Assembly (NCBI GenBank): GCA_947169155.1
Contig: CAMVON010000003.1
Span: 5,910-69,909, forward strand
From: an uncultured Clostridiaceae bacterium
Lineage (GTDB): Bacteria > Bacillota > Clostridia > TANB77 > CAG-465
Direction of reading: 5' to 3'
DNA length: 64,000 bases
Below the pieces are notes generated by a model, which saw nothing but the letters and a program-made list of their open reading frames with translations, did not search any database and was not told the DNA's origin. A program made the position numbers and the translations under genes. Positions 9,803 through 28,694 of this stretch are shown piece after piece. Position 1 is the first letter of the stretch, and each line of letters starts with the position of its first letter.

Positions 9803-9874
9803 AAAAGTTTTGAAAAGGGTTTTGGATTGTCTTTAAAATCGTTTTATAATGATAGTATAAGGAGATGATCTATT

Positions 9875-10573: not shown

Positions 10574-10895
10574 GAAAGGAGGAATTATCATAGACTTAGA
10601 GAAATTGGCAAATAAAATAATAGAATATGAGGCTGAGTATAATTGGTATGATCTTGTTGATGACTATGGAAATATTGAAATAGATGATGATGCAAGAAAG
10701 CATTTATTTGAAGAAACTCTAAGAGTATTGCAAAACAGCCCTGATGATATTATTACACACTTAAATACAATAAAAGAAGATTTAGAGTGTGATGAAGATT
10801 TTGAAAACAATAAGGAATATCAAGATACTAAAGAACTTATTGATAGTATTGAAAAATTTAAAGCTGAACAATTAGATGACAGCTTAGAAATGTAA
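10536..10895 (+). CDS. small strongly acidic protein (possible DNA-mimic/anti-restriction-type, speculative)
   Basis: ORF open from 10476, but the start is uncertain. The first in-frame ATG with coding look is at 10536, overlapping the previous gene; GGAGG at 10578 may instead serve a non-ATG start. Very D/E-rich. Confidence 0.35.
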   Translation: MESIFAHNVISYRKGGIIIDLEKLANKIIEYEAEYNWYDLVDDYGNIEIDDDARKHLFEETLRVLQNSPDDIITHLNTIKEDLECDEDFENNKEYQDTKELIDSIEKFKAEQLDDSLEM

Positions 10896-10957
10896 TAAAT
10901 AGATATAAGGCACTTAACTAAGGTTAGGTGCTTTTTCTATGGAAAGGAATTGATAAA

Positions 10958-13573
10958 ATGTTAAAAGTAAATAGTAAAAGAATAATAGCAATGTTAATGT
11001 TAGTATTAACATTATTTTCTACTTTAAGTCCTAGTGTATTTGCTACTGAAATAAGCTCTGCAAATATTGAAAATAACGGAGATGTTGAATGGCATTTACA
11101 ATATTGGAATGAGGATAAAAATGTATGGTCTTATGTTACAACAACATATACTACTTATAATGAAGGTGGAAGAAGTTATCCTGCTTATTGTGTAAATAGA
11201 GAATATCCAGGTGTTGGAGAACTAGATGGCTATACTGTTGATGTCAATGCAAGTGTTACTGATGTTTTAGGAAATGTGCAAATATGGAGAACAATTATAA
11301 ATGGATTTCCTTATAAATCAGCAGGAGAACTTGGCTTAGCAAATGACCTAGAGGCTTTTCAAGCAACAAAACAAGCTGTATATTGTATTCTATATGGTTT
11401 TGATCCTGCTAGTCGTTTTAGAAGTGCTGAACAAGGTGCTGATGACAGAGGCGATGCAATAAGAACAGCAATAATAAATATGGTTAATACAGGAAGATAC
11501 GGAGCTCAAATGCCTTCTGATCCTGATATAACACTTTCTAATTCAGGAAATTTATATGAGGATGGAAATTACTATACTCAAAAAATAAATGTTTCAAGCA
11601 CAGTAGATATGGCAAATTATACAATTACTGCGACTGCTAATTTACCTGAAGGAACAATTATTACAAATTCAAATGGAACACAAACAAACTCTTTCAATGG
11701 AAATGAAAGTATGTATGTTAAGATACCTAAATCTCAATTAGGACAAGACATTTCTAATGCAATAATAAATGTGCAAGGAAAATGTAAAACATATCCTGTA
11801 TTCTATGGGCAAACTAGAATGGCTGAAACTCAAAATTATGCACTAACTTACGATCCTTTTGGCGATGGTGTTGGTCGTGCCACTTTAAATATTAAAACTA
11901 ACACAGGAAAAGTTGTTGTTAATAAAACAGATGATGAAACTAAACAGCCTATTGAGGGAGTAAAATTCTCTTTAAAGAAAACTGATGGAACAGTTGTAGG
12001 AACAGCTACTACTGATAAAAATGGTGTTGCTACCTTTGAAAAGTTATATCAAGCAAATTATAAATTAGTTGAGGTAGAAACGAATCCTAAATATATTCTA
12101 AATAAAGTAGAATTTGATGTCCCTGTTGAATATAACAAGACAGCAAAAGTTGATGTTGAAAATGAACACAAAAAAGGCAATATAAAGGTTTATAAAATTG
12201 ATAAAGATAACAATAGAGTTGTACTAGGAAATGTTGAATTTGACCTATTCTCGCACGAATTTGATAAGGTTATTGGAACATACCATACAGATGTAAATGG
12301 AGAACTTGAAATTAAGGATTTAAGAATAGGAGATTATTCACTAATCGAAAAGAAAACGAATAGATGGTACAATCTTGCTGAAGATACAGACATTGAGGTT
12401 GAATGGAATTTAACAAAAGAACTTCAAATAGAAAATGAGCTAAAAAAAGGCTCTATAAAAATTATAAAAGTTGATGAAGAAGATCACGAAGTAAAACTTG
12501 AAAATGTTAAATTTAAAGTTATGGATAAAGACAATAATGTTTTAGAAGAACTAACAACAGATAAAAACGGAGAGGCTGAAACTTCTAATTATCCTGTAAG
12601 AGATTTTTCAGAATTAAAAATACAAGAAGTTGAAACATTAGATACTTATGTTTTAGATGATGAAATTCATACTATTACACTTGAAGAAAATCAAATAAAA
12701 AATGTTACTTTTGAAAATGAAAAAATCAAAGGACAAATTGAAGTAACAAAAGTAAGTGCTAATGACAATAAATTAACAGGAGATAAAAAAGGTACTCCAC
12801 TTGAAGGAGCTATATTTGAAGTATATAATTCGAACGATGAATTAGTTGATACTCTAACTACTGATAAAGATGGTAAAGCTATTTCAAAATTACTTGTAAA
12901 GGGAGAATATCACTTAAAAGAAGTTGACTCAGGATCACCTTATTACTTAATAAATTCAGATATATTTAAAGCTGAAATAAAAGAGCATAAAGAAATTGTT
13001 GGTGTAAATGTTGATGAGGAAAGTGTTGACATTGAGGTTGAAGTTGAGAAAAAAGGTTTTATTGAAACACAATCAAAAGACAGTATTTACTATAATTTCA
13101 AAAATATTAAAAATAAATCAAATGTTGCATTAGACAATTTTACTTGGCAAGATACACTACCTACACAAGCATTAAGAGTTGATAGAATTTATACAGGTAC
13201 TTGGAATGAGGATTTAGAATATTCAATTTGGTATAAAACTAATAAAAATGACTATAAAATGTTAGTAGATAAACTAAGTACACAAGTTAATAACGAAATA
13301 AGCTTTAAGACTGCAGATTTAGAAGAAGATGAATTCATTACTGAATATGAATTTAGATTCGGAACTGTTAAAGTAGGCTTTTCAGAAGTAGATGCACCTG
13401 TGCTTTACTGTGATATGTTAGAAGGTTTAGGTAATGGTTTTGTATTTACTAACTATACAAAAGTATTTGGAACTTATGAGGATAAATATGTTGAAGATAC
13501 TGATGAATGGACTACTGTTACTTATTTCAAAGAAATAGAAGTTACTCAAAAACTACCTAGAACAGGTTGTTAA
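10958..13573 (+). CDS. large surface adhesin: candidate thioester (TIE-like) N-domain, 4-5 CnaB/SpaA-type repeats, C-terminal LPRTG motif
   Basis: Signal peptide after a likely ATG at 10958. YCVNREYPG and FQATKQAVY segments resemble thioester Cys/Gln motifs. Repeated …VVVNKTDDETKQPIEGVKFSL…TTDKNGVATF… units. Ends …KLPRTGC-stop. Confidence 0.65.
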   Translation: MLKVNSKRIIAMLMLVLTLFSTLSPSVFATEISSANIENNGDVEWHLQYWNEDKNVWSYVTTTYTTYNEGGRSYPAYCVNREYPGVGELDGYTVDVNASVTDVLGNVQIWRTIINGFPYKSAGELGLANDLEAFQATKQAVYCILYGFDPASRFRSAEQGADDRGDAIRTAIINMVNTGRYGAQMPSDPDITLSNSGNLYEDGNYYTQKINVSSTVDMANYTITATANLPEGTIITNSNGTQTNSFNGNESMYVKIPKSQLGQDISNAIINVQGKCKTYPVFYGQTRMAETQNYALTYDPFGDGVGRATLNIKTNTGKVVVNKTDDETKQPIEGVKFSLKKTDGTVVGTATTDKNGVATFEKLYQANYKLVEVETNPKYILNKVEFDVPVEYNKTAKVDVENEHKKGNIKVYKIDKDNNRVVLGNVEFDLFSHEFDKVIGTYHTDVNGELEIKDLRIGDYSLIEKKTNRWYNLAEDTDIEVEWNLTKELQIENELKKGSIKIIKVDEEDHEVKLENVKFKVMDKDNNVLEELTTDKNGEAETSNYPVRDFSELKIQEVETLDTYVLDDEIHTITLEENQIKNVTFENEKIKGQIEVTKVSANDNKLTGDKKGTPLEGAIFEVYNSNDELVDTLTTDKDGKAISKLLVKGEYHLKEVDSGSPYYLINSDIFKAEIKEHKEIVGVNVDEESVDIEVEVEKKGFIETQSKDSIYYNFKNIKNKSNVALDNFTWQDTLPTQALRVDRIYTGTWNEDLEYSIWYKTNKNDYKMLVDKLSTQVNNEISFKTADLEEDEFITEYEFRFGTVKVGFSEVDAPVLYCDMLEGLGNGFVFTNYTKVFGTYEDKYVEDTDEWTTVTYFKEIEVTQKLPRTGC

Positions 13574-13652
13574 TATTGACTTTTAATCATTTTTTATTAT
13601 AATGTATATGAATTTATGAATTCATATATATAAATTATTTTTTATTTATTTT

Positions 13653-13696
13653 AATAGGGGAGTATGGGTTTATAGCCTATCTCCCCTATTTTTTCG
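13653..13696 (+). terminator. rho-independent terminator after the adhesin gene
   Basis: AATAGGGGAG … CTCCCCTATT 10-bp stem followed by TTTTT. Confidence 0.6.
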
Positions 13697-13720
13697 TTTC
13701 TATCCCCTATTTTATTGCAT

Positions 13721-13767
13721 AAAAAAATACTAGAGCCACTAACAAGCCACCTAGTATTTTATTTTAA
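13721..13767. terminator. bidirectional terminator (A-run / ATACTAG…CTAGTAT hairpin / T-run) serving the minus-strand XRE gene
   Basis: 7-bp stem flanked by A7 and TTTATTTT; lies just 3' of the minus-strand stop at 13759-13761. Confidence 0.45.
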
Positions 13768-14019
13768 AGATTTAAAATATTCATCAGTTAAATCATTTAC
13801 TGATATGTTAAAACATTTAGCGAATCCACATAGCTCGTAATCTACAACAGTTCTAATTCCAATCTCAATATTATAAATTGCTTGTTTATGAATATCTATT
13901 CCTAACAACATTAGCTTATCTGATAATTTTTGATAAGATAATTTATTTAATTCTCTATAATATTTTATTTTAGAGCCGACTACATTTAATTCGCCTTCTT
14001 TTGACCTTGTATTATTCAT
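13759..14019 (-). CDS. XRE-family helix-turn-helix transcriptional regulator (ICE repressor-like)
   Basis: 86 aa; HTH_XRE pattern (…YRELNKLSYQKLSDKLMLLGIDIHKQAIYNIEIG…); opposite orientation between conjugation and cargo blocks, as orf9 in Tn916. Confidence 0.7.
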   Translation of the reverse strand: MNNTRSKEGELNVVGSKIKYYRELNKLSYQKLSDKLMLLGIDIHKQAIYNIEIGIRTVVDYELCGFAKCFNISVNDLTDEYFKSLK

Positions 14020-14151
14020 ATCGACATCTCCTCTATCTATTGATTTTATAATAAAAGTTTGATATTATTATAAATGCCTGTATTTATACCTATTTATTAT
14101 TCGCAATTTATATGCTAAAATACTAAAAATGTAGAAGGAGATGTTGAAATT

Positions 14152-14775
14152 ATGAGTAAATTATTTGAAGAATACTCAGCAGATGAAATAGATGATGCAA
14201 AAGGAAAAATAAAAAGAATTGAAATTAGAAAAAAAGAATTTAATTTACTTAAAGAAAAATTAGAAAAACACTTTAATTTTGAAATTACAGAGTATATAAT
14301 AGCTGATATTTTAGATTATGAAACATATCATCATACTTGTTTAATGATAAATTTAGCTGTTGTTAATAATAGAATGACAGTAGTTGATGGAGAAATATTA
14401 AAAGCAGGACTAAAAATATTATTTAATATTCAAAGTAGTAATGATAGGTTTGACAGGAGTGTTTATATGGATACTTTCGATTTTGATGTTTGGTATGAAA
14501 AGTACAGTACACTTGAAATTGTTGACCTAAAGAAACATCTTTCAAAAGAAGATTTTGATTTACTAAAGAGCTTAAATATTGAAATTAAGGATAAGGTATA
14601 TACAGAGCAAGAATTTGAAATCTTAGATATGGAACTTCTAGGGTATTATATTGATGAAGATATGGATGAAGAAGAACTTAAAGAATCTAAGCCACTTCCT
14701 GAAGGAATTACAAGAGAAGAATACAATAAATTACTTGAAAAACTAAGCAATATATCAAGTGAATATAATTTTTAA
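14152..14775 (+). CDS. acidic hypothetical protein (cargo region)
   Basis: 207-aa ORF with RBS GAAGGAG; no recognisable motif. Confidence 0.5.
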   Translation: MSKLFEEYSADEIDDAKGKIKRIEIRKKEFNLLKEKLEKHFNFEITEYIIADILDYETYHHTCLMINLAVVNNRMTVVDGEILKAGLKILFNIQSSNDRFDRSVYMDTFDFDVWYEKYSTLEIVDLKKHLSKEDFDLLKSLNIEIKDKVYTEQEFEILDMELLGYYIDEDMDEEELKESKPLPEGITREEYNKLLEKLSNISSEYNF

Positions 14776-14801
14776 TACCAGTAGTTAGACTGGTATTTTT
14801 T
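14775..14801 (+). terminator. rho-independent terminator
   Basis: ATACCAGT agttag ACTGGTAT followed by TTTTTT. Confidence 0.55.
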
Positions 14802-14892
14802 GTGCTTGTAAATTTCTGTAAAATTGTTGAGAAAAATGTCGTTTTGTGATATAACATATACTAGAGTTTTTATAAGTAATTAAGGGGTTGAA

Positions 14893-15111
14893 ATGATGGA
14901 AACAAATAAATACTTCAATCAGTATATAGATAGACTTGATGTAAATCAAAATGCACTAGAAAAACTTAAAGCTAACGAGATTATTACTTTAGGAAAATTA
15001 AGCAATTATAAAAAATCTCAATTAAAAGATTTTGGATTACAACAAAATGAAATAAGTAAAATTGAAGTTGAACTTGAATTATTAGGCTTATCATTAAAAG
15101 GCTCTTTATAA
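14893..15111 (+). CDS. small protein resembling the RNA polymerase alpha-subunit C-terminal domain (HhH DNA-binding)
   Basis: 72 aa. The pattern L.V..N.L..L…I.TLG.L…….L….G…EI..IE..L..LGLSL parallels alpha-CTD (LELTVRSANCLKAE…[20 protein letters not shown]). Confidence 0.45.
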   Translation: MMETNKYFNQYIDRLDVNQNALEKLKANEIITLGKLSNYKKSQLKDFGLQQNEISKIEVELELLGLSLKGSL

Positions 15112-15125
15112 TAGGAGGATAAATA

Positions 15126-15734
15126 ATGAGTCATAAAAGTTTTTGGGATAGTTTAGGAGATACGATTAGCTTTATTATTTTTATAAAATATGTACTACCA
15201 ATATTGATAATTTTTATTATTGGATTAGTAGCATATCAAGGCATATATGGATCAAGTATGGATAAAAAGTATGAGAATATGGAAAATGTTATTGTTACTT
15301 CTAAATTAGTAAGTACAGTTTGTGATTATGCAAGAGAAGTTTATAACAAAGAAGTTTTTTCTGAAGTAAAAGGAGATCCTGATAATTCAGATCCTATGAG
15401 TATGTATTCAGTTGAAGTAGATTATGTTTTTAATGATAATACAAAAACAGCTGAAGAATACGATTCTTTAATTAAAGATGAACTAACTAAACTATACAAT
15501 AAACTTAAAGGAAAGGTAATTGAGAAAGACCAAATATTTGCTGAAACTGATAGAAAAAGTATAGGATTAAGTTTCTATATTCCAAACAATAACGGTGGAA
15601 CTTCTATATTGTGTTCAGCCTCATTGATATATAACAAAGATATTGGATTTGTTGAAGAATCCTATCAAAAAGAGCTTAGCAGAACAATAGTAACAAGTGA
15701 AAGAATTGAAGATGCTATAAAAAGGAGCTATTAA
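15126..15734 (+). CDS. N-terminally membrane-anchored hypothetical protein
   Basis: 202 aa, one TM near the N-terminus, no recognisable motif. Confidence 0.5.
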   Translation: MSHKSFWDSLGDTISFIIFIKYVLPILIIFIIGLVAYQGIYGSSMDKKYENMENVIVTSKLVSTVCDYAREVYNKEVFSEVKGDPDNSDPMSMYSVEVDYVFNDNTKTAEEYDSLIKDELTKLYNKLKGKVIEKDQIFAETDRKSIGLSFYIPNNNGGTSILCSASLIYNKDIGFVEESYQKELSRTIVTSERIEDAIKRSY

Positions 15735-15758
15735 AATAATTTAGGAGAATGATGAAAT

Positions 15759-18700
15759 ATGATTAATAATGATTTAACTTTCTTTACAAACGAGCCTGAA
15801 AGAAATTTATATGATAGATTTAGTAAAATACTTAACAGAAATACACAATTTTTTGATGTTCTTGTTGGATATTTTAGAGCAAGTGGATTTTATTTAATGC
15901 AAGATGCTTTGGATAAAGTGGAAAAAACAAGAATTCTAATAGGTATAAATACTGATAAACAAATTGTTGATATGTTTGAAGAAACACAAGGCGAAATAAA
16001 GGAATTTAGTTTGTCAAATAAAGAATCTATAACTGAATATAAAAAAGAGCTTGAAAAAGAATTTGAAAAGTCTGAAGATACAGAAAATGTTGAAAAAGGT
16101 GTAAATAAGTTTATATCATTACTAAAAGAAGGAAAGCTTGAAATTAGAATATATACTAAGCAACCTATACACGCAAAAATTTATATTATGAGAGATTTTA
16201 AGGATAGTGCTGATTTTGGTAGAGTAATCACAGGATCAAGTAACTTTTCTCAATCAGGATTAGTAAATAATCTTGAATTTAATGTTGAATTAAAAAATTC
16301 AGCAGATGTTCAATTTGCTTTAGAAAAATTTGAAGAATTATGGAAAGAATCTGTTGAAGTAAATCAAGAATGTGTTGATACAATAGAAAATAAAACTTGG
16401 GTTAGATCAGACATAACACCTTATGAAATGTATGTAAAATTTTTATATGAATATTTTAAAGAAGAAATAAACGATGATTTAATTGATAGTTCTAAAGACT
16501 CATCAAGATATTATCCTGATAGCTTTGTACCTTTACAATATCAGAAGGATGCTGTAATTCAAGCAAAAAGAATATTAGAAAAACATAATGGTATTTTTAT
16601 TTCTGATGTTGTTGGTCTAGGAAAAACTTATATATGTGCTATGTTAGCTCAGGAATTAGATCATAAAAAACTAATACTTTGCCCTCCTGTTCTAGTGGAT
16701 TATTGGGAAAATGTAATGTTTAATTTTGGAGTTAGAGGTGTAAAGGTAGAATCAGTTGGAAAGTTAGATAAAATTATTGAGAATGGTACAGAACAATACG
16801 GATATGTTTTTGTCGATGAATCACATAGATTTAGAAATGCTGAAACTGAACAATATAGACAATTACACGAAATATGTGTTGGAAAAAAAGTTATTCTTAT
16901 TTCTGCAACACCACAAAATAACTATAATACAGATATTGCTAATCAATTATATTTATTCCAATCAAAAAATAAATCTACCATAGTAAATGCAAGAAACTTA
17001 GAATTGTTTTTTGATAATCTTAGAAAAAAGGTTAGATCTTATGAGAAAGATACTGATGAATATAAACAAGCAATAAGAGAAACATCTGAAGAAATAAGAG
17101 ATAAAGTTTTAAGAGAAGTAATGATTAGAAGAACTAGGACAGAAATTCAAAAAACTTATGCTGATGATTTAAAGAAACAAGGATTAAAATTTCCAAAGGT
17201 TTCTGATCCTATAAAACTAATTTATGAATTTAGCGAAAATGCTGAAGAAGTATTTGAAACAACAATTCAAAAAATAACAGAGTTAAATTATTCAAGATAT
17301 AAACCTTTAACTTATGTTAAAGATAATAAACTACAATCTAGTCAAAGATCTTTATTAGTAGGTCAAGCTAATATGGGTGGATTTATGAAAGGTATTCTTG
17401 TAAAAAGATTAGAAAGTAGTAAATATGCTTTTGAAATGACTTTAAATAGGTTTATAGATTCTTATAATGAATTTATAAAAATGTATAAAGAAAATGGTGT
17501 CGTTTGGATTAGTAAAAAACTTAATGTTGCTGAGTTATTAGATAATGATGATACTGAGAAATTAGAACAAGCTGTAAAGAATGAAGATGCTTTTAAGTTT
17601 AATGCAGAAGATTTTAACAAAGATTTTATTATAGACTTAGAGAAAGACTTAGCAATATTACAAAATTTAAAATATATTTGGGATACAGTTAAAACTGATG
17701 ATAAACTAGAATATTTTATAAATGAATTAAAAAATAATAAAGACTTAAAACATAATAAACTAATTATATTTACTGAATCTAAAGAAACAGCTGAATACTT
17801 AACTAAGAGTATTGAAAATAGACTTAATGAAAATGTTATTGTATTTAGTGGATCAATGCCTGATAGTATTAGAACATCTATTAGAGCAAACTTTGATCCT
17901 AACTATAACAAAGATAAACAAAAGAATGATTATAGAATATTAGTTACTACTGATGTACTTGCTGAAGGTATGAATTTACATAGAAGTAATGTAATCATAA
18001 ATTATGATTTACCTTGGAATCCTACTAAAATAATGCAAAGAGTTGGAAGAATTAACAGAGTTGGAACAGCACATAATGAGATATATGTTTATAACTTCTT
18101 CCCTACAAGCAAATCAAATGAACAGATGTCATTGGAAGAAAACATTATTACTAAAATGCAAATGTTTCACGATATTTTAGGAGAAGATTCAAAATTCTTA
18201 ACAGATGATGAGGAAGTTTCTACACATGAGTTATTTAGAAGAATGACAACAATTATTGATGATGAAGATGAAGAAATTAGCTCAGAACTTTCTTATTTAA
18301 AGACAATCCGTGATATTAGGGATAAAGATAAAGAATTATTTGAAAAGATTAAAAACTATCCTAAGAAAATTAAAATCGGAAGAAAAAAAGACAATATAGA
18401 TGGACTAATTACTTTCTTTAGAAAGGGATATTTAAAGAAGTTCTATATTTCAAGTGTTGAGGATACAAAAGAAATTACTTTTGAACAAGCTATTGATTAT
18501 GTTAAAGCAACAAAATCAGAACAAAGCAAAAAAGTTAAAAGCGATTATTATGATTTACTAAAAGCAAATAAACTAGCTTTTGAAGAATCAGAAAAAGAAG
18601 ATAATAGTAATGAAATAACTGCTGTGAATAAAAAGGGATCTAGTAATGCTAAAAATATTATTAAAGTGCTTAAAGAGTGCTTAAAAATGGAATCAAGTTT

Positions 18701-18956
18701 TACTGATATAGAAATTGATAATATAAATAAAATAATAAACTTATTAGAAAATGGCGAATTGCCTGTTAGAATAGTTAAAGATGGAAATAAAGCCATAAAG
18801 AAGATAACAGGAGTTAATGATATTATAAAATTCTATAAAGAATTGGAACTTATGATACCTAAAGTTTATCTTGAGCAAGAAACAAAAGTTGAGGCAAATA
18901 ATAAGAAAATAAGTAAAAATGAAAGAGAAATAATCTTGTCAGAATACATTTTTTAA
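15759..18956 (+). CDS. PLD-family (HKD) nuclease domain fused to an SNF2-family helicase/translocase
   Basis: Single HKD motif IHAKIYIMRD…GSSNFSQSG near residue 140. SNF2/SF2 motifs SDVVGLGKT (I), VFVDESHRFRN (II, DESH), LVTTDVLAEGMNLH (V), QRVGRINRVGT (VI). Confidence 0.85.
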   Translation: MINNDLTFFTNEPERNLYDRFSKILNRNTQFFDVLVGYFRASGFYLMQDALDKVEKTRILIGINTDKQIVDMFEETQGEIKEFSLSNKESITEYKKELEKEFEKSEDTENVEKGVNKFISLLKEGKLEIRIYTKQPIHAKIYIMRDFKDSADFGRVITGSSNFSQSGLVNNLEFNVELKNSADVQFALEKFEELWKESVEVNQECVDTIENKTWVRSDITPYEMYVKFLYEYFKEEINDDLIDSSKDSSRYYPDSFVPLQYQKDAVIQAKRILEKHNGIFISDVVGLGKTYICAMLAQELDHKKLILCPPVLVDYWENVMFNFGVRGVKVESVGKLDKIIENGTEQYGYVFVDESHRFRNAETEQYRQLHEICVGKKVILISATPQNNYNTDIANQLYLFQSKNKSTIVNARNLELFFDNLRKKVRSYEKDTDEYKQAIRETSEEIRDKVLREVMIRRTRTEIQKTYADDLKKQGLKFPKVSDPIKLIYEFSENAEEVFETTIQKITELNYSRYKPLTYVKDNKLQSSQRSLLVGQANMGGFMKGILVKRLESSKYAFEMTLNRFIDSYNEFIKMYKENGVVWISKKLNVAELLDNDDTEKLEQAVKNEDAFKFNAEDFNKDFIIDLEKDLAILQNLKYIWDTVKTDDKLEYFINELKNNKDLKHNKLIIFTESKETAEYLTKSIENRLNENVIVFSGSMPDSIRTSIRANFDPNYNKDKQKNDYRILVTTDVLAEGMNLHRSNVIINYDLPWNPTKIMQRVGRINRVGTAHNEIYVYNFFPTSKSNEQMSLEENIITKMQMFHDILGEDSKFLTDDEEVSTHELFRRMTTIIDDEDEEISSELSYLKTIRDIRDKDKELFEKIKNYPKKIKIGRKKDNIDGLITFFRKGYLKKFYISSVEDTKEITFEQAIDYVKATKSEQSKKVKSDYYDLLKANKLAFEESEKEDNSNEITAVNKKGSSNAKNIIKVLKECLKMESSFTDIEIDNINKIINLLENGELPVRIVKDGNKAIKKITGVNDIIKFYKELELMIPKVYLEQETKVEANNKKISKNEREIILSEYIF

Positions 18957-18971
18957 TGGGGGTATGTAAAA

Positions 18972-21900
18972 ATGGCGATAGCAAGTGATAAAACAAAAGA
19001 ATATTTACAAATGCTTGAAGAAAAATTTGATATAAACAATTTTTGTGAATTTATAAAAGACTTATTGAACTTGGAAAATAGCAATATTGTAAATGGTCAA
19101 AAGCAAAAGGCTACAAGCGAACAATATAAAAATTATATAGACACCACTCAATTATATGCAAAATACGAAGACAATAAGAGAAGAACAATAGGTGTTTTAG
19201 TTATAAAATTACAAGATAATAAACTTCCCGCAAATGCTAGAACTTTGCAAAGAAATTACATAGCACACTTGCTAGATGCATATAGTTTAGATGCCTCACT
19301 ATCTGCAATATATAGTGAAACTGATGATACTTGGAGATTATCTTTTGTAAAACAAGAATTAGATTTTGGAGATGGAAAATTAAAAGCAAAATTTACTCCT
19401 GCAAAAAGATATTCATATCTTTTTGGAAAAGATGAGCCTAATCATACAGCTAAAGAACAATTATTAGAATTATTAGAGAATAATAATAAGCAATATTCTA
19501 TTGAAGAAATAGAAGAAAAATTTAGTGTTGAAAAAGTTACAAAAGATTTCTTTGAAAATTATAAAGAAAACTATTTAAAATTAAAAGAAACATTAGAGGC
19601 AAACGAGGAATTTATTAGTGAGGCTAATAGATGTGATTTTACTTCAGAAGAATTTACAAAAAAACTTATGGGACAAATTGTTTTTATATATTTCTTACAG
19701 AAAAAAGGATGGCTGGGTGTTAGATTAGTTCCTCAGTTATTAAGTATGGAAGAATACAATAACATCTATACCAAAAGTGATATTATTCAAAAGAAAATTT
19801 TAGATAAATACTACATTACTTTTAATGGTAATAAGAAAATTAAAAAAGAATTGTTAGAAAAATACAACGATAATAAACAAGAAATTGAGAGTTTATCAGA
19901 TATATTTACTAATACAAGTTTTGATAATAAATGGGGATCAGGACAAAAGAGATTTATTAGAGCTATATTTGATAATTGTATAAATAGAAAAAAGAACTTT
20001 TTTGATGATTATTTAGAGCCATTTTTCTATGATGGACTTAATCATAAAAGAAAAAATCAATATTTTAGCTTGTTTAATTGCAAAATACCATTTCTTAATG
20101 GTGGATTATTTGAGCCATTAGACAATTATCAATGGGAAATAGCAAGATTTAATATTGATAATGAAATATTTTCTAATAAAGAAGAAACAGGAATATTAGA
20201 TTTCTTTGATAGATATAACTTTACAATGAACGAAGAAGAACCTCTTGAAAAAGATGTTGCAGTTGATCCTGAAATGTTAGGAAAAATATTTGAAAACTTA
20301 CTAGATGTTAAAGACAGAAAATCAAAAGGAGCTTTTTATACTCCAAGAGAAATTGTGCATTTTATGTGTCAAGAAAGCATTGCTAATTTCTTAGTAAATA
20401 AAGTTGGAGTAAAATACGAAGAAATTAAAGAATTTATACAATATGGAGAGATGATAAGAGATATTGACTTAAAAGATGCAACTAAAGAGTCTCACATAAT
20501 AGGAGATTCAATATTCAATAACATTATTCAAATAGATAAGGCACTTGAAAATATAAAAATTGCAGATCCATCTGTTGGATCAGGTGCATTTCCTTTAGGA
20601 ATATTAAACGAAATAGTAAAAATAAGAGATATATTAACTTCATATATGTTAATTTATAACAGACTTGGGTTATTTGGAAAGAAATATACAGAAGAACAGA
20701 TAACTAATAATAAAAGAAGTATTTATAATATAAAATGGAATACAATAAAAAACAGTATATATGCAGTTGATATTGAGAATAGTGCAGTAGATATAACTAA
20801 ATTAAGATTATGGCTTTCAATAGTTGTAGATCAAACTGATGATCCTGAGCCTTTACCAAACCTAAATTGTAAAATTATGCAAGGTAATTCCTTAATAGAT
20901 GAATATAACGGAATAAAGCTAATTGATGAAAAATTTATTGAAGAATTAAAAGATCGTGAGAATGTAAAATTAAATGATGGTGGAAGAATAAAAAGCAAAA
21001 ATAAGTATATTGATGTTTCAGCAAATCAAATACAATTTGGAGATGGGCAGAAAAAAGCCCAAATTGATGATTTAATTAACTTGAAACAAGAATTATACGG
21101 AGAAAATGAGCCTAGTAGAAAAAAATTACTACTTGAAAAAATAGAAATAGCTAGAAATGAATTATTACGATTAAACTTTGCTGGAACTAATAAAGAAAAA
21201 GAACTTTTAGAAATAGACAAATCACACAATAAACCTTATTTTGCTTGGATGCTCGAATTTATTGAAGTTTTTATATCAAATAATGGGTTTGATATAGTAA
21301 TAGGAAATCCTCCGTATGTTGGAGAAAGTGGAAATAAAGACATTTTCCGACCTATTGCTAATACAGAGTTTGGTAAAAGATTCTATATGGGCAAGATGGA
21401 TTTATTTTATTTCTTTTTCCATAAAGGAATTGATATTTCAAATAATATGGGAGAAATTGCTTTAATAACTACAAACTATTATACTACTTCTGATGGTGGT
21501 AAAAAACTAAGGAAAGATTTAAAAGAAAGAACATATATTAGAAAATTTATAAACTTTAATGAAATTAAAGTCTTTGATTCTGCTAGAGGACAACATAATT
21601 CTATTATGTTTTTAACAAAAAATAAAGAAGAAAAAATAAAATGCAATGTAGTATTATGTAATGGAAAGGGCAATGCATCAGCAAACGATATAAAAAATAT
21701 CTTAATTGGTAATTATAAAAATAATATAAAAATTGAATTAGACCAAAATAATATTTATGATGGAGATAACTATTATATAAGACAAACAGGGGTACATTCA
21801 GTGGGAAACATATCCTCAGTTGAAACTATATTAGATAAGATGTCTAAATGTAAAAAACTTTCTGAGAACTATTTTGTAAATCAAGGTGTTGTTACTGGAT

Positions 21901-22685
21901 GCGATACATTAACAAAAAAATATATAAACAGTTTTAACATACAAAATCCAAGAGTAAATGAAGGAATTTATGTTTTAGATTTAACTAATCCTGATGATGT
22001 TGAAACTGCAAACAAGTTTAAAGAAGGAAAGGCATTATTAAGAGATTTTTATAAAAATTCAGATATTGAAAAATGGGTTTCTTCTTCAGAGGCAAAAAAG
22101 AAATTGATTTATTTTCAAGGACAAATTGTAAAAGAAAAATACCCTGATATATATAATCATTTATTAAGATTTAAACCTATTCTTGAAAAAAGATTAGAAA
22201 CATATAATGAACATTATCATTGGACGGCAATTCATAGATCAAGAGAGGAAAAAATATTCTGTGGAGAAAAAATTGTTGTACCTTATAGAACAAAGAAAAA
22301 TACATTTGCTTATAATAACATAGAATGGTTTTGTAGATCTGATGCTTATATCATTACTGCAAAAAATGAAAAATCAAATTTAAAAGAATTGCTTGGAATT
22401 TTAAATTCAAAAGTATATTATCTATGGTTATGTTATAGGGGAAAAAGAAAAGGAGAGACTTTAGAATTATTCCAAAAGCCATTAACAGAAATTCCAATTG
22501 TTACATTATCAGAAGATGAAAAAGAAAATGTAATTGATATTGTAAACAAAATTATAAATCAGAAAGCATTAAATAAAGAATGTGATGTTACAGAATTAGA
22601 AAAACAAATAGATAATATTATTTATAATGCATTAAAACTAAATCCTGAAGAAATAAAAATAGTGGAGGAAAACTATAATGAATGA
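18972..22685 (+). CDS. large gamma-class N6-adenine DNA methyltransferase with ~500-aa N-terminal domain and C-terminal target-recognition-like region (Type IIG / PglX / DrmMI-like)
   Basis: AdoMet motif I IADPSVGSGAFPLG, catalytic motif IV VIGNPPYVG downstream (gamma order). 1237 aa. Conserved FIYFLQKKGWLG segment typical of large type IIG/IIL-like enzymes. Confidence 0.85.
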   Translation: MAIASDKTKEYLQMLEEKFDINNFCEFIKDLLNLENSNIVNGQKQKATSEQYKNYIDTTQLYAKYEDNKRRTIGVLVIKLQDNKLPANARTLQRNYIAHLLDAYSLDASLSAIYSETDDTWRLSFVKQELDFGDGKLKAKFTPAKRYSYLFGKDEPNHTAKEQLLELLENNNKQYSIEEIEEKFSVEKVTKDFFENYKENYLKLKETLEANEEFISEANRCDFTSEEFTKKLMGQIVFIYFLQKKGWLGVRLVPQLLSMEEYNNIYTKSDIIQKKILDKYYITFNGNKKIKKELLEKYNDNKQEIESLSDIFTNTSFDNKWGSGQKRFIRAIFDNCINRKKNFFDDYLEPFFYDGLNHKRKNQYFSLFNCKIPFLNGGLFEPLDNYQWEIARFNIDNEIFSNKEETGILDFFDRYNFTMNEEEPLEKDVAVDPEMLGKIFENLLDVKDRKSKGAFYTPREIVHFMCQESIANFLVNKVGVKYEEIKEFIQYGEMIRDIDLKDATKESHIIGDSIFNNIIQIDKALENIKIADPSVGSGAFPLGILNEIVKIRDILTSYMLIYNRLGLFGKKYTEEQITNNKRSIYNIKWNTIKNSIYAVDIENSAVDITKLRLWLSIVVDQTDDPEPLPNLNCKIMQGNSLIDEYNGIKLIDEKFIEELKDRENVKLNDGGRIKSKNKYIDVSANQIQFGDGQKKAQIDDLINLKQELYGENEPSRKKLLLEKIEIARNELLRLNFAGTNKEKELLEIDKSHNKPYFAWMLEFIEVFISNNGFDIVIGNPPYVGESGNKDIFRPIANTEFGKRFYMGKMDLFYFFFHKGIDISNNMGEIALITTNYYTTSDGGKKLRKDLKERTYIRKFINFNEIKVFDSARGQHNSIMFLTKNKEEKIKCNVVLCNGKGNASANDIKNILIGNYKNNIKIELDQNNIYDGDNYYIRQTGVHSVGNISSVETILDKMSKCKKLSENYFVNQGVVTGCDTLTKKYINSFNIQNPRVNEGIYVLDLTNPDDVETANKFKEGKALLRDFYKNSDIEKWVSSSEAKKKLIYFQGQIVKEKYPDIYNHLLRFKPILEKRLETYNEHYHWTAIHRSREEKIFCGEKIVVPYRTKKNTFAYNNIEWFCRSDAYIITAKNEKSNLKELLGILNSKVYYLWLCYRGKRKGETLELFQKPLTEIPIVTLSEDEKENVIDIVNKIINQKALNKECDVTELEKQIDNIIYNALKLNPEEIKIVEENYNE

Positions 22686-23591: not shown

Positions 23592-23624
23592 TAATAAGAG
23601 AGTAGTATATTTAATTACTACTCT

Positions 23625-24332
23625 CTATTCTTCTCTAAAATACTCTACAAGCAGAGTTATAAAGTATTTAGGTGTTACTGTATCAGGTCTAAATTTTAAT
23701 GAAAAAACGGAGCAAAGGTTATCAATAGACAGAGATCGATTTAATGTGTCTATTGAAGTTCTAATACTCCATTTAACTGTTTTCGGACTTATATTGTATA
23801 GTTTTGCTACCTCTGAATATAAGTCTTTTATATTATTTAATAAATAAGGTTGTTTATATGCTATATTTATTGCTGAAATTAGTTGTTTTCCTCTTGTAGA
23901 AAAAACATTTAATCTTAATTCTGTCAATATTTCTTTTAATTCTTTTTGATTTATTTCTTCATTTTTAATAGGTACTTCCTTTATAGTTTTTAATATGTAC
24001 TCAAAGTCAGCAGGTTTAGGGATTACTCTAAAAACTTGTGCTGTATTATATAGCTTATGCAGATATTCTATACTTCCTGAATATACAATTATATTACATT
24101 TTGATCTTTCTTCAGAAAATCTACCAATAGTGTTTATTACATCAAGCCCACTTATTTTAGGCATATCTAAATCTAATAAGAGAACATCAGGTTTAGATTC
24201 AAAATAATTCTTTACAGTTTCCTCCCCATCTGTAGCACAAGATACAATTTTAATATCTTCATCATTTGTTAGAAATTCAAAACAACTTTTACATAGGAAT
24301 TTGTTATCCTCTGCAATCATAACCTTAATCAT
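23625..24332 (-). CDS. orphan response regulator: receiver domain plus Spo0A-like C-terminal DNA-binding domain
   Basis: REC motifs (MIKVMIAEDN…LLLDLDMP, Asp ~54). C-terminal AKLYNISPKTVKWSIRTSID and …RPDTVTPKYFITLL parallel the Spo0A_C signature (AKQYNTTASRVERAIRHAIE / KPTNSEFIAM). No histidine kinase nearby. Confidence 0.6.
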   Translation of the reverse strand: MIKVMIAEDNKFLCKSCFEFLTNDEDIKIVSCATDGEETVKNYFESKPDVLLLDLDMPKISGLDVINTIGRFSEERSKCNIIVYSGSIEYLHKLYNTAQVFRVIPKPADFEYILKTIKEVPIKNEEINQKELKEILTELRLNVFSTRGKQLISAINIAYKQPYLLNNIKDLYSEVAKLYNISPKTVKWSIRTSIDTLNRSLSIDNLCSVFSLKFRPDTVTPKYFITLLVEYFREE

Positions 24333-24428
24333 TGTCTACCTCCATTAAAATTAACATATTGCAAAATTCCCAATTAGCTTATCTAACTGGAATGCATTAT
24401 ATCACTTTTTATGTGAACTTTCAATCAT

Positions 24429-24455
24429 TTCGACAAAACTTTCCAATATTCGACA
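24429..24455. promoter_or_regulatory. two direct TTCGACA repeats (reverse complement of the Spo0A 0A box TGTCGAA) spaced 20 bp, in the divergent regulatory region
   Basis: TTCGACAAAACTTTCC … TTCGACAAGACTTTC at 24429-24435 and 24449-24455; followed by CACTTTTCAACACTTTTTCAGCCCTTTTCATCA repeats and a TATAAT at 24501. Confidence 0.35.
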
Positions 24456-24663
24456 AGACTTTCAGCACTTTTCAACACTTTTTCAGCCCTTTTCATCATT
24501 TATAATGAAAAATTTCCAAAAAGTTCTAAGATATAGACAGGACAAGTAGTCCATAACTTAGAGGCTTTTATATTTCACAAAGGTTGAGTATGAAAATACT
24601 AAGGATGATAGAATATTTACTTTTATCTATGGACTAATTGTGCTTTTAAGGAGGAATTTTTAT

Positions 24664-24696
24664 ATGTTTAAGTTTTTTCTGTATTTAAGATTATAA
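24664..24696 (+). CDS. 10-codon leader ORF (MFKFFLYLRL) upstream of the sigma-like gene
   Basis: AAGGAGG 9 nt upstream of ATG; immediately precedes a hairpin that masks the next gene's RBS. Confidence 0.3.
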   Translation: MFKFFLYLRL

Positions 24697-24732
24697 TTTT
24701 ATATGTTTTAACAAGGTAATAATATAAAAATG

Positions 24733-24770
24733 CCTCTGTTCTATGGGCTTAACTGTGCCTAGAACGGAGG
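24733..24770 (+). promoter_or_regulatory. RBS-sequestering hairpin (CCTCTGTTCTA … TAGAACGGAGG) in front of the sigma-like gene
   Basis: 11-bp stem (one U-G), 16-nt loop; the 3' arm contains the GGAGG used by the ATG at 24772/24778. Confidence 0.4.
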
Positions 24771-24771: not shown

Positions 24772-25176
24772 ATGCTTATGAATTCTAATTATAATGAGGA
24801 AACTGTTAGAGCATTTAAAAGTTATATTATGCAAATTATACAACACTCTGCTGTTGACTATATTAGAAAGGTAAAAAGTTCAAAATATACTGAAATTGCT
24901 TTTACTGATGCTATTGATAATACTGTGTCTTTGTCAAGTTTTGATGAAGGCACTTTTTTTGACTTTGATAGTATAAGTGATTTTAGTTTTAGCAATAAGA
25001 AAAATGAAAGAGCCTTTTATGCCTTAACTAAAAAAGAAAGAAAAATTTTTTTATTACTTGCTGATGGATATACTCCTGAAGATATTTCAAAAAAACTCAA
25101 TATTAGAATAGATAATGTCTATTCTTCTATTTATGTTGCAAGAAAGAAATTTAAGAAAAGATGGGAGGAAAAATAA
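24772..25176 (+). CDS. sigma-70 region-4-like regulator (Tn916 Orf7-like)
   Basis: C-terminal LTKKERKIFLLLADGYTPEDISKKLNIRIDNVYSSIYVARKKF (region 4 HTH); the true start may be the second ATG at 24778. Confidence 0.55.
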   Translation: MLMNSNYNEETVRAFKSYIMQIIQHSAVDYIRKVKSSKYTEIAFTDAIDNTVSLSSFDEGTFFDFDSISDFSFSNKKNERAFYALTKKERKIFLLLADGYTPEDISKKLNIRIDNVYSSIYVARKKFKKRWEEK

Positions 25177-25377
25177 ATGACTGAGGAAGATAAAAAATTA
25201 TATGAATTGTTACTTTTAGCGAAGAAAGGAAATACTAAAGCTACTTTTGAAATAATACTTATGTTTGAAAAATATATAGATAAACATTGCTATATAAATG
25301 GCTGTTTTAATCAAGAATGTAAAGATTATATTATAGATAAATTATACATAGAAATAAAAAAATTCAAAAAAATTTAA
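25177..25377 (+). CDS. small regulatory protein (Tn916 Orf8-like position)
   Basis: 66-aa ORF coupled to the sigma-like gene (stop/start adjacent). Confidence 0.35.
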   Translation: MTEEDKKLYELLLLAKKGNTKATFEIILMFEKYIDKHCYINGCFNQECKDYIIDKLYIEIKKFKKI

Positions 25378-25955: not shown

Positions 25956-26103
25956 GGACAAGTTTGTATAGCTTGTTCTTATTTTTACTCATAAAAATCA
26001 AAAAAATTTATAAATGGGTTTGGGATTCGTTTTTGTAGGAGTTTATAATAAAAATAATGATATTTTAACTCTTTTACGAATTTCAAGGATTGGAGGTTTT
26101 GTA

Positions 26104-26334
26104 ATGGATGAGAATAAAATATCAGAAGAATTTATAAAAGTTCTATTAAGTAATATGAAACAAGATCCTTTTGAAATGATGACAGTAAATGATGTGGCAA
26201 AAGATTTAGGTATGGGAGTAAATACAGTAAATTCAATTTTTAAAAGAGATGACTTCCCTACGATAAATCTAGGAAAAAGAAAAATAGTTACTAGACTTGC
26301 ATATTACTTGTGGAAAATGAAAAGGAGAGATTAA
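26104..26334 (+). CDS. xis: excisionase / HTH_17-type DNA-binding protein
   Basis: Likely ATG at 26104 (GGAGG 7 nt upstream) inside the track ORF 26014..26334. MTVNDVAKDLGMGVNTVNSIFKRDDFPTINLGKRKIV is a typical Xis/MerR-like HTH. Directly precedes the integrase. Confidence 0.5.
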   Translation: MDENKISEEFIKVLLSNMKQDPFEMMTVNDVAKDLGMGVNTVNSIFKRDDFPTINLGKRKIVTRLAYYLWKMKRRD

Positions 26335-26335
26335 A

Positions 26336-27535
26336 ATGTATAATACTCGTGAAAAAGGCTCTATTTATTATAACAAAGCAAGAGATAACTGGACTGTTCT
26401 TTACTACGAAACAGATCCTAAAACAGGACAGAAAAAGAGAAAAAGCAAAAGTCAGCCAACAAAAGAAATGGCAGAAAAATTTTTAACTTCTCTAATGTAT
26501 CAAAGAAAAAATCCTTTATATATGAAAAAACATAAAATTTGTCTAGGAGATTATATGAAATTAAGAACTAAAACAAAACTTGAAACAAATATAATTTCAG
26601 AGAATTCACTAGGTAGAATAAATCAAACATTAAATATAATTAAAAAATCTTATTTATACAATAAGAAGATTGATGAAATTACTACTGAAGAAATACAAAA
26701 TTATTTTAATACTTTAACAGATTACAGTAGTTCTACTATAAATAAGATTTTTAGCGAGTTTAGGCAGATTTTTAATTATGCTTTTTCACAAAATATTATA
26801 TTAGCAAATCCTATGGTAGATATAATAAAACCTAAAAGCAAGATTATAAATAAGCCTTTGAGAGCTTTAACTCTTGATGAAGAAGAAAATTTAGTAAATT
26901 ATTTAACAGGAATAACTTTAAAAAAATGTAGATATAGAAATGTGTTTTTAATTCAAATGTTTACAGGAATGAGAATCGGCGAAGTGTTGGCATTGAAAAC
27001 TACTGACATTGACCTTGCTCATAACCTTATAACTGTTGAAAGAACAATTAGTAAAGACAAAAATTCTAAAGTAATAATGGGTAAAACAACAAAAACTTAT
27101 GCAGGACAAAGAGAATTGCCTGTACCTATTTTAATAAGAGATTTTATAATAGAACAAATGCAAATTGCAAATAAATCAAATCACAAAACAAAATTATTAT
27201 TTAGGAATTCACTAGGAAATTTAGCAAATCCTGCACAGGTTAATACAGCATTTAAAGAAGTTATAAAAGATTTAGGTTACGAAGATATTACTTCACATAC
27301 ATTAAGGCATACTTTTGCAACAAGATGTATTGAAAGTGGAATGAAACCTGTTGTAATTCAAAGACTTATGGGACATACAAATATACAAATAACATTAAAT
27401 ACTTATACATCTATTTTTAATAAATATAAAGAATCAGAAATAACTAAAGTAAATAACTACTATTTAGAGAATAATATTATTACAGATACACATAAACAAA
27501 TTAGTGATTATTCAGTAGTAGTGATTGAAGAATAA
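26336..27535 (+). CDS. int: tyrosine recombinase / integrase (copy 1)
   Basis: N-terminal SAM-like DNA-binding domain; catalytic R (MFTGMRIGE), HxxR (HTLRHTF), Y (LNTYTSI). Confidence 0.85.
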   Translation: MYNTREKGSIYYNKARDNWTVLYYETDPKTGQKKRKSKSQPTKEMAEKFLTSLMYQRKNPLYMKKHKICLGDYMKLRTKTKLETNIISENSLGRINQTLNIIKKSYLYNKKIDEITTEEIQNYFNTLTDYSSSTINKIFSEFRQIFNYAFSQNIILANPMVDIIKPKSKIINKPLRALTLDEEENLVNYLTGITLKKCRYRNVFLIQMFTGMRIGEVLALKTTDIDLAHNLITVERTISKDKNSKVIMGKTTKTYAGQRELPVPILIRDFIIEQMQIANKSNHKTKLLFRNSLGNLANPAQVNTAFKEVIKDLGYEDITSHTLRHTFATRCIESGMKPVVIQRLMGHTNIQITLNTYTSIFNKYKESEITKVNNYYLENNIITDTHKQISDYSVVVIEE

Positions 27536-27548
27536 GGAGAGATATTTT

Positions 27549-28694
27549 ATGAGTAGAAATCAAGGAGCAAGTTTATTTTATAGAAAAGAAAGAGATACTT
27601 GGATTGTTCAATATTATACAAATGGAGATAAAAGAAGTAAGAAAAGTTTTAAGGAAAAGCAGGAGGCTGAAAATTTTTTAGAAGAAATAATGTTTAAGAA
27701 AGATAATAAAAAATATGTTAGAAACAATGGAATGACTTTAAGAACAATAATTGTTAGTAATATAAATAAAAAGTTTGGATCAGGTATTATTTCTGAAGGA
27801 CAACTTATGAGAACAAATAAAACAATAAAACAAATGCCTGAAGAACTATTAAATACTAATATTGAAGAAATTACTGAAGAAGATATACAAACCTATTTGA
27901 ATTCTTTAAAAAATTACAGTAATTCAAGCATTAAAAAGTTTTATGAGTTATTAAGTCAGGCTTTTAGGATTGCATTTGAAAGAGATTATATAAAATTAAA
28001 TCCTATGAAAAATGTTCTTAGACCTAAAAGCAAGAAAAAAGATAAAAAAGTTAGAGCATTGACTGTTGATGAACAAGAAAGATTTACACAATATTTATTA
28101 GATCAAAATATAAAAGATACACCTTATAGAAATGTATTCTTAGTTCAAATGTTTACGGGGATGAGAATCGGCGAAGTGTTGGCATTGAAGACTACTGACA
28201 TTGACCTTGCTCATAACCTAATTACAGTTGAGCATACAATATCAGTTGATGCAAAAGAAAAAACTATACTTAAAGAAACACCTAAATCATTTAATGGAAT
28301 GAGAGAGATACCGATGCCTTCGTATTTAAAACCTTATATTATGGAGCAAATGAAAATTGCTAATATAAATAATCATAAGGAAAATTTATTATTTGTAAAT
28401 AGAAATAAAGGCTATGTGGATCATAGAATAGCAAATAAAATATTAAAAAAAATGTTAGAGGAACTGGATATAGAAGGCATATCTACCCATAGTTTAAGAC
28501 ATACTTTTGGAACAAGATGTATTGAAAGTGGTGTACGAGATGTTGCATTACAAAGAATAATGGGACATTCTTCAATTACAGCAACACTTAATAACTATGT
28601 AGATGTATCTGAGGAGTTAAAAGAAAGCGAACTAGAAAAAGTATATAGTTATTATAGAGAAAATATGAATATTGACATAGATGATTTTGACTGA
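27549..28694 (+). CDS. int: tyrosine recombinase / integrase (copy 2, paralog of copy 1)
   Basis: Likely ATG at 27549 (AAGGAGAG 7 nt upstream); the track ORF starts at 27525, overlapping copy 1. Same catalytic residues (MFTGMRIGE, HSLRHTF, LNNYVDV). Confidence 0.85.
   Translation: MSRNQGASLFYRKERDTWIVQYYTNGDKRSKKSFKEKQEAENFLEEIMFKKDNKKYVRNNGMTLRTIIVSNINKKFGSGIISEGQLMRTNKTIKQMPEELLNTNIEEITEEDIQTYLNSLKNYSNSSIKKFYELLSQAFRIAFERDYIKLNPMKNVLRPKSKKKDKKVRALTVDEQERFTQYLLDQNIKDTPYRNVFLVQMFTGMRIGEVLALKTTDIDLAHNLITVEHTISVDAKEKTILKETPKSFNGMREIPMPSYLKPYIMEQMKIANINNHKENLLFVNRNKGYVDHRIANKILKKMLEELDIEGISTHSLRHTFGTRCIESGVRDVALQRIMGHSSITATLNNYVDVSEELKESELEKVYSYYRENMNIDIDDFD

Follow-up and report, generated by a model that had tools for sequence, protein, structure and literature searches.

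Which protein reads the Spo0A boxes that precede a Spo0A-like gene on a mobile element, and what would its binding switch? The question is raised by a 64,000-nucleotide (nt) stretch of DNA (the window) from an uncultured Clostridiaceae bacterium (GenBank assembly GCA_947169155.1, contig CAMVON010000003.1). Here, the initial annotation had described an orphan Spo0A-like response regulator (hereafter the regulator) encoded by an integrative conjugative element, with two 0A-box-like TTCGACA heptamers in its divergent control region. The analysis presented below indicates that (i) the heptamers, which are conserved cis-elements across related loci, are genuine Spo0A-type boxes in the control region of the regulator; (ii) the regulator, judged by its domains and profile score, is a full-length but diverged Spo0A paralogue and not Spo0A itself; and (iii) the transfer switch of the element is probably tied to host sporulation signaling.

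The promoter of the regulator gene is the top-scoring site of the region, with 11 of 12 consensus positions and a TG extension, and the predicted transcript starts near 24389 with a 57-nt leader that contains a GGAGG. In the 64-kb window TTCGACA occurs exactly twice, at 24429-24435 and 24449-24455, on the same strand and 20 bp apart, upstream of the regulator as previously reported. Both copies are in the spacer between the regulator gene and a divergent sigma-like gene, but they are not loosely placed there, because they abut the -35 hexamer of the regulator's own promoter. The divergent gene had also been recognized; its start is most likely at 24778, 7 nt after GGAGG, rather than at 24772, and the spacer spans 24333-24777. 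When read in the direction of the regulator, the box centres fall at ~-43 and ~-63 of a near-consensus sigma-A promoter, and the boxes are in helical phase with each other and with the -35. The heptamers belong to a longer repeat of 15-20 nt (TTCGACAARACTTTC). The published Spo0A box consensus is TTTGTCRAA, and 0A boxes at Spo0A-activated promoters have a layout that resembles the box positions found here. Spo0A binds 0A boxes upstream of its own gene, and in clostridia the presence of a consensus box is predictive of Spo0A binding (PMC3485338).

By analytic estimate, the total of TTCGACA copies per window is about that expected by chance (2.3-2.65), the presence of both copies in one 445-bp spacer has P ~1.3e-4, and the expected number of same-strand pairs no more than 30 bp apart is ~1.3e-3 per 64 kb. 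Related loci (21) were collected in a metagenome scan with a narrower C-terminal alignment. When 11 diverged lineages were anchored on the -10 hexamer, box 1 (TTGTCGAAT) and box 2 (TTGTCgAa) were as conserved as the -35 and the -10, and the flanking and intervening bases varied. The register of the boxes was kept in relatives down to 43% protein identity. In 220 kb from 24 related loci, 23 of the 30 exact boxes were within 200 bp upstream of the regulator start codon, and all 23 were in its orientation. Among closer lineages the commonest box variant was TGTCAAA, which fits because the Spo0A consensus has R at this position; TGTCGAT was found in one group, and a few lineages had a more degenerate box 1 or box 2. 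Distant lineages carried three copies of TTTGTCATA at 10-bp spacing (L121), TTGTCA units (L122) or degenerate versions (L120).

Further short direct repeats had been noted beyond the heptamers. These CTTTTCA-type repeats are real (3.5 tandem copies with a 10-11-bp period, 24460-24495), but they are in fact a phased array that is more widespread in the family than the boxes. A weak TTGGAAA site was found between the two boxes, and the first bases of the successive sites (24435, 24445, 24455, 24467, 24477, 24488 and 24498) form a ~10.5-bp lattice on one face of the helix, with the array continuing the phase of the boxes and reaching the divergent operon. Within the window, the array unit at 0-1 mismatch was confined to this spacer. 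Of the related lineages examined, only one was without the array (L122, with TTGTCA units instead), and the array unit varies among distant lineages (TGCTGAAAA, TGCTAAAAA, TAGCAAAAA and TGTATAAAA). The array probably shares an operator with the boxes.

The regulator is a 235-aa protein in which a receiver and a Spo0A-like C-terminus had been recognized, and Pfam confirmed both domains (Response_reg, 61.1 bits; Spo0A_C, PF08769, spanning residues 149-231 with 38.3 bits, cut-off 25). When the C-terminal domains of 22 family members were combined into a profile, it matched the Spo0A effector-domain structures 1LQ1 (E 2.7e-11) and 1FC3 (E 1.2e-10) along the full domain, and the top matches of the receiver among solved structures were Spo0A receiver domains (phmmer against PDB). 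With the whole regulator as a single sequence, phmmer returned only receiver domains from PDB, the effector structures being reached by the profile; Foldseek with the full model returned mostly receiver or NarL-type regulators and was uninformative on the effector domain. The AlphaFold2 model, built with 35 family members, shows a receiver fold followed by a helical bundle, with a mean predicted local distance difference test score (pLDDT) of 89. The alignment with Bacillus subtilis Spo0A (the C-terminal part of the sequence used agrees with the 1LQ1 chain) ran from end to end with 25% identity (E 2e-21), and the main length difference was a ~25-residue hinge that is absent in the regulator.

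The top NCBIfam match of the regulator was Spo0A (TIGR02875), with residues 2-231 on profile positions 3-254 of 262, but its 84 bits are below the equivalog cut-off of 200 bits, and hence below the orthologue threshold. It is because of this score, together with an altered recognition helix (V-K-W), that we consider the protein to be a paralogue; the term orphan Spo0A-like regulator is therefore retained for a Spo0A-like response regulator, but not in the sense of a Spo0A. The gene is located within the conjugative element, between the cargo and the xis-int genes, and not at the chromosomal spo0A locus. F210 of the regulator, conserved in >90% of the family, is the equivalent of F236 of Spo0A, which is part of the patch that contacts and activates sigma-A. 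The phospho-acceptor pocket is preserved, with E8/D9, D54, S85 and K106 at the positions of D10/D11, D56, T86 and K108 of Spo0A, the roles of which have been described (bioRxiv 10.1101/2022.02.07.479450). Across 35 family members, D54 never varies and K106 is kept in at least 90%.

The conserved Spo0A recognition helix is not kept in the regulator. S182-PKTVKWSIRTSIDTLN aligns with T208-ASRVERAIRHAIEVAW of Spo0A, so that P-K-T-V-K-W-S-I-R-T-S-I-D-T-L is found where Spo0A has S-R-V-E-R-A-I-R-H-A-I-E-V-A-W; E213 and R214 of Spo0A are among its base-contacting residues. Bases G2, C4 and G5 of TGTCGAA are contacted by Spo0A through residues that Bacillus and C. difficile share (PMC3485338). With V-K-W in the place of V-E-R, therefore, TGTCGAA specificity of the paralogue cannot be assumed. 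In an exhaustive search V-E-R was retained by the genuine Spo0A-length relatives (P0272, P0306 and P0299), and the short family showed KW, QW, LW, RS, KN, RD and other pairs at the position of E-R. A candidate recognition code that paired helix residue 192 with position 5 of the array unit (T with G, N with A) fitted the first loci and was broken by L118.

In each of the 15 related elements with an available gene table, the regulator gene was divergent from a gene for a 130-160-aa sigma-like protein; in most of them a small HTH_16 gene followed the sigma-like gene, and the spacer was usually ~410-450 bp. The recombinase was a tyrosine integrase or a large serine recombinase, varying among these elements, and the insertion sites differed. 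The cargo beside the regulator also varied (L081-L096, L118-L122), with type I, II, IIG and III restriction systems and GmrSD, a reverse transcriptase with Avd and MutS_I genes (L091), or zeta-toxin and acetyltransferase genes (L093). Because synteny holds while recombinase type and cargo are swapped, the regulator, on the evidence of gene order, is a member of the core control module of the element and not cargo.

The family is large. A word-indexed search gave ~124 protein clusters at 90% identity, nearly all of 230-240 aa and with the same two domains, and the exhaustive search added >100 further full-length relatives of 230-245 aa (clusters at 50% identity, P0168-P0313). No relatives were found in IMG/VR viral contigs, a plasmid collection yielded generic regulators only, and a phage collection yielded only full-length matches of 24-29% identity on unannotated faecal contigs. 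A scan of genome contigs with a full-length alignment returned mostly generic response regulators, the true relatives being only L001-L004. Some related elements have additional signalling genes close to the regulator. L089 encodes a second, very different 244-aa protein with receiver and Spo0A_C domains (9508-10242, minus strand), L093 encodes a 327-aa receiver-domain protein near the regulator (6743-7726, minus strand), and L122 has a small open reading frame (ORF) with a weak match to Spo0E, which represents a Spo0A~P phosphatase family (5081-5236, plus strand).

The absence of a nearby kinase, also stated in the initial annotation, was borne out by our searches. No histidine-kinase domain was detected among window ORFs of at least 100 aa with a Pfam match (some ORFs had no match, several host-side ORFs were unscanned, and the left end of the element is outside the window), and none was seen beside the regulator gene in any of the 15 related elements with a gene table. 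The window's host side contained housekeeping genes only, and a search there for kinase or sporulation genes found none.

The divergent operon starts with the sigma-like gene. A promoter scan of the plus strand found no consensus sigma-70 promoter for this operon. Two -10-like hexamers are conserved: TATAAT (24501-24506) directly follows the array, and TAnnAT (TAAGAT, 24528-24533) precedes a conserved CAGGAC (24538) by 4-6 nt. Because there is no good -35, the promoter is probably activator-dependent. The conserved leader contains three copies of ATGGACTAnTTGTSC (24538-24556, inverted; 24626-24644; and 24744-24759), the first of which can pair with the second, and a mini-ORF (MFKFFLYLRL, 24664-24696) with the ribosome binding site (RBS) AAGGAGG. 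A mini-ORF of 1-12 codons with a strong RBS was present in every lineage examined, although its sequence was not conserved. A hairpin (24733-24743 with 24760-24770) buries the GGAGG of the sigma-like gene; it is accompanied by four compensatory pairs in 11 sequences, and folding of the window leader gave z = -4.2. From these features the leader looks like a case of leader-peptide translational attenuation. A tblastn search of the plasmid collection with the sigma-like protein gave no match.

Our leading reading, which we hold tentatively, is that a Spo0A-family protein bound to the boxes and the lattice drives feedback on the regulator and switches the divergent operon, with the element's own regulator acting together with host Spo0A~P. 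A phosphorylated Spo0A-family protein would nucleate on the two strong boxes, and synthesis of the regulator would rise by positive feedback; at higher concentration the protein would fill the weaker lattice and switch the divergent promoter. Translation of the sigma-like gene would be further gated by the leader mini-ORF and the RBS-sequestering hairpin, and the sigma-like and HTH_16 proteins would in turn drive Xis, Int and transfer. The obligate reader of the sites would be the element's own regulator, since regulator and lattice are found together in almost every case. Host Spo0A~P probably binds the two boxes too, because they match the host consensus exactly and such a box predicts clostridial Spo0A binding (PMC3485338). 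The simplest phosphodonors would be the orphan sporulation kinases of the host, given that the regulator comes without its own kinase and has a Spo0A-like receiver. By either route, through the own regulator or through host Spo0A~P, activation of the element would be tied to stationary phase or sporulation entry of the host.

Several observations weigh against this reading. K184, K187, W188 and T192 of the regulator replace S210, E213, R214 and H218 of Spo0A; unchanged TGTCGAA specificity of the paralogue would not be expected, and the boxes may be read by host Spo0A only. A simple residue-to-base covariation between helix and array units did not hold. L089, L091 and L095 have the regulator, the promoter and the array but no boxes, and other lineages have TTGTCATA or TTGTCA units in place of the boxes. 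The similarity of array units within an element could derive from slippage, or the units could function as phased A-tracts. For the sigma-like operon, the promoter consists of candidate elements only, and the ability of the host to sporulate is not visible from the window. Finally, the regulator promoter is already near consensus, and therefore activation is possibly unnecessary and binding could equally repress.

In the main rival reading, host Spo0A~P alone would occupy the boxes and the paralogue alone the lineage-specific array, in a cascade from host Spo0A~P to the regulator and then to the sigma-like operon. We consider this possible, albeit on the unlikely side. The boxes keep exactly to the host consensus (TTGTCGAA, with TGTCAAA as the commonest variant) though the regulators differ by up to 57% in sequence, the array units change among lineages, the regulator helix is without the V-E-R of genuine Spo0A, and the array is kept by box-less lineages; phages phi29 and Nf provide a precedent (PMC2731898), and the predictive value of the consensus box for clostridial Spo0A points the same way (PMC3485338). 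An invariant host reader is, however, hard to reconcile with boxes that drift in distant lineages (TTGTCATA in L121, TTGTCA in L122), and a Spo0A paralogue encoded behind Spo0A boxes that it could not read would be a coincidence, unless both were captured jointly from a spo0A locus. In addition, there is no clean covariation between helix and array units, and no spo0A gene of the host is visible in the window.

The sign of regulation could also be the opposite, with the regulator as a maintenance repressor, like Tn916 Orf9 or ICEBs1 ImmR, that sits on the boxes and the array, keeps the sigma-like-xis-int operon off and limits its own synthesis until dephosphorylation or competition by host Spo0A~P leads to induction. 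The regulator occupies the divergent-regulator position of a Tn916-type module, its own promoter does not need an activator, the array reaches the -35 region of the divergent promoter and probably overlaps it, and Spo0A represses some promoters, e.g., abrB. Yet boxes centred at -43 and -63, upstream of the -35, have the classic position for activation rather than for occlusion, a divergent promoter with no recognizable -35 suggests activator dependence, and the equivalent of F236, in the sigma-A-contact patch, is conserved. We regard repression as unlikely. It appears still less plausible, and in our view improbable, that the sites are not operators of a Spo0A-family protein at all, the boxes being a relic of a captured spo0A promoter, the array a phased A-tract or UP-like element or a site for the sigma-like or HTH_16 protein, and the regulator acting elsewhere, e.g., on host genes. 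The array units are A-tracts one helical turn apart, slippage could explain why they are alike within an element, the module has genes for three other DNA-binding proteins, and the boxes are absent in some lineages. But a relic would not stay as conserved as the -35 and -10 over 43-100% protein identity with variable flanks, 23 of 30 boxes share one position and orientation, and the non-A parts of the array units are conserved too. A farther-reaching proposal, about which we are doubtful, extends to the host: the paralogue would tap the orphan sporulation kinases, compete or form mixed dimers with host Spo0A at 0A boxes throughout the genome and so delay or redirect sporulation, while host Spo0A~P would trigger the element's switch via the boxes. 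If this were true, the cell could, e.g., be held transfer-competent until the element has excised.

The regulator had been taken to be ICE-encoded (integrative conjugative element, ICE), and type IV secretion genes, recombinases and a tRNA-Pro were indeed found in the same window (Table 1). By this gene content, the region from the window start to ~28.9 kb is an integrative conjugative element. Its genes encode a coupling protein, TrbL_4, a VirB4-like ATPase, an M23 hydrolase, MT-A70, a sortase, a SpaA/thioester adhesin, an SNF2/PLD helicase and a type IIG restriction-methylase. The Pfam matches for type IV secretion were T4SS-DNA_transf with TraG-D_C, AAA_10 with P-loop_TraG, TrbL_4 and Peptidase_M23. 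The left part of the element continues beyond the window start, where the coupling-protein ORF matches only profile positions 144-440. In the control module the regulator is followed, divergently, by the sigma-like gene (Sigma70_r4_2), HTH_16, a 72-aa ORF, the HTH_17 excisionase-like gene and two Phage_integrase genes.

Other features of the element were observed. The two tyrosine recombinases (26336-28694, plus strand; 399 and 389 aa) are in tandem next to the tRNA-Pro and overlap by 11 nt; because related elements have a single recombinase, this arrangement may be a remnant of a second element or a tandem insertion at the same tRNA site. A pemK RNA motif (Rfam RF02913; 25602-25677, plus strand) scored 49.8 bits against a gathering threshold of 34.8 and is located after the HTH_16 gene and before the 72-aa ORF, which in turn precedes the excisionase-like gene. 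The hairpin at 23597-23626 is a terminator-like element common to the regulator gene and the converging upstream genes. A putative defence/cargo block (15759-22893, plus strand) has an SNF2/PLD helicase (1065 aa), a type IIG methylase-endonuclease (1237 aa) with weak similarity to BREX PglX, and a small PC4-like single-stranded DNA-binding protein; L081-L083 and L095 have this trio beside the regulator as well. Genes for a sortase and a surface protein (881 aa; thioester domain and SpaA repeats) are located at 9203-13573 (plus strand), and the surface protein may be an adhesin for mating-pair formation.

Table 1. Position of the control-region features and neighbouring genes in the window.
Feature	Position	Strand	Evidence or description
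Conjugation and cargo genes	144..22685	plus	Pfam / NCBIfam
Bidirectional terminator-like hairpin, 3' end of regulator gene	23597..23626	both	perfect 11-pair stem, T-rich tails on both strands
Spo0A-like response regulator gene	23625..24332	minus	ORF call, Pfam, profiles, alignment, AlphaFold2 model
Regulator RBS GGAGG	24339..24343	minus	direct sequence reading; conserved in related loci
Regulator promoter: -35 TTGAAA 24419-24424, 17-nt spacer, extended -10 TGATATAAT 24396-24404	24396..24424	minus	promoter scan; conserved in all related loci
Box 2, TTGTCGAA	24429..24436	minus	perfect Spo0A box 4 nt upstream of -35; heptamer ~-40 to -46
Box 1, TTGTCGAA	24449..24456	minus	perfect Spo0A box 20 bp upstream of box 2; heptamer ~-60 to -66
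Phased array TGCTGAA, TGTTGAA, GGCTGAA, TGATGAA (TGYTGAA(AA)-type)	24458..24499	minus	period 10-11 bp; repeat search
Candidate promoter elements of sigma-like operon: TATAAT 24501-24506, or TAnnAT (TAAGAT 24528-24533)	24501..24533	plus	assignment uncertain
Structured 5' leader of sigma-like operon	24538..24770	plus	repeats, folding, comparison with relatives
Sigma-like regulator, 132 aa, sigma-70 region 4 and part of region 2	24778..25176	plus	Pfam / NCBIfam
HTH_16 (PF12645) small DNA-binding protein, adjoins sigma-like gene	25177..25377	plus	Pfam
HTH_17 excisionase-like gene and two tandem tyrosine recombinases, right element end	26014..28694	plus	Pfam
tRNA-Pro next to recombinases	28928-29003	minus	tRNA at right end

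The timing of excision and transfer relative to sporulation is largely unknown for conjugative elements of spore-forming gut Clostridia. The locus described here provides a defined, conserved and compact control region of ~110 bp, with two perfect boxes, a phased array, two divergent promoters and a dedicated Spo0A paralogue, that is directly testable. The regulator family is common in human-gut metagenomes (>100 clusters at 90% identity), and its elements carry varied restriction-modification and other putative defence genes. The short Spo0A-like regulators (~235-245 aa), with their diversified helices, also represent a natural series for the evolution of DNA specificity in the Spo0A effector domain.

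When compared with Spo0A, the regulator has the same two-domain architecture, phospho-acceptor pocket and effector-domain family (structures 1QMP, 1FC3 and 1LQ1); its gene has no partner kinase beside it, as with clostridial Spo0A, and, like spo0A, it has consensus 0A boxes ahead of its promoter. In contrast, it is 235 aa long and without the ~25-aa hinge (Spo0A has ~267 aa), its helix has K-W where Spo0A has E-R, and its gene belongs to the control module of a conjugative element. In Tn916, orf9, which encodes a small helix-turn-helix regulator, is divergent from orf7 (sigma-like) and orf8 (HTH_16), followed by xis and int. Compared by domain order with this layout, the module shares a divergent regulator and, in the same order, sigma-like, HTH_16, excisionase and tyrosine integrase genes. 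The putative control by a leader peptide is also as with the Tn916 orf12 leader. The mini-ORF with a strong RBS upstream of an RBS-sequestering hairpin resembles ermC and orf12 attenuation, but here the leader belongs to the sigma-like gene and not to the regulator, and the mini-ORF sequence is not conserved. Unlike in Tn916, the divergent regulator is a phosphorylatable Spo0A-like response regulator instead of a small helix-turn-helix repressor, and the operator consists of Spo0A boxes and a phased array.

Mobile elements that exploit Spo0A have been described. Phages phi29 and Nf carry 0A boxes through which host Spo0A is read (PMC2731898). As here, the boxes are in the (early) control region of a mobile element, and phage development depends on the level of host Spo0A~P; however, these phages have no Spo0A homologue of their own, and their boxes repress promoters and replication, whereas here they have an activator position before a Spo0A-paralogue gene. 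Gut phages carry truncated, receiver-less spo0A homologues (PMC10294663), PF08769 is enriched in mobile elements of gut Firmicutes (bioRxiv 10.1101/214213), and some Clostridiales genomes have two or three spo0A paralogues (bioRxiv 10.1101/2022.02.25.481979). The regulator shares with these surveys a Spo0A_C domain on mobile elements of gut spore-formers, but in contrast to the phage versions it is full length and retains the receiver. The surveys described neither a control module nor binding sites (PMC10294663; bioRxiv 10.1101/214213), and in the literature searched we found no description of this control module, its boxes or its array. The locus appears to be a new combination of two known kinds, a Spo0A-family regulator and a Tn916-type module in which the divergent repressor has been replaced by that regulator.

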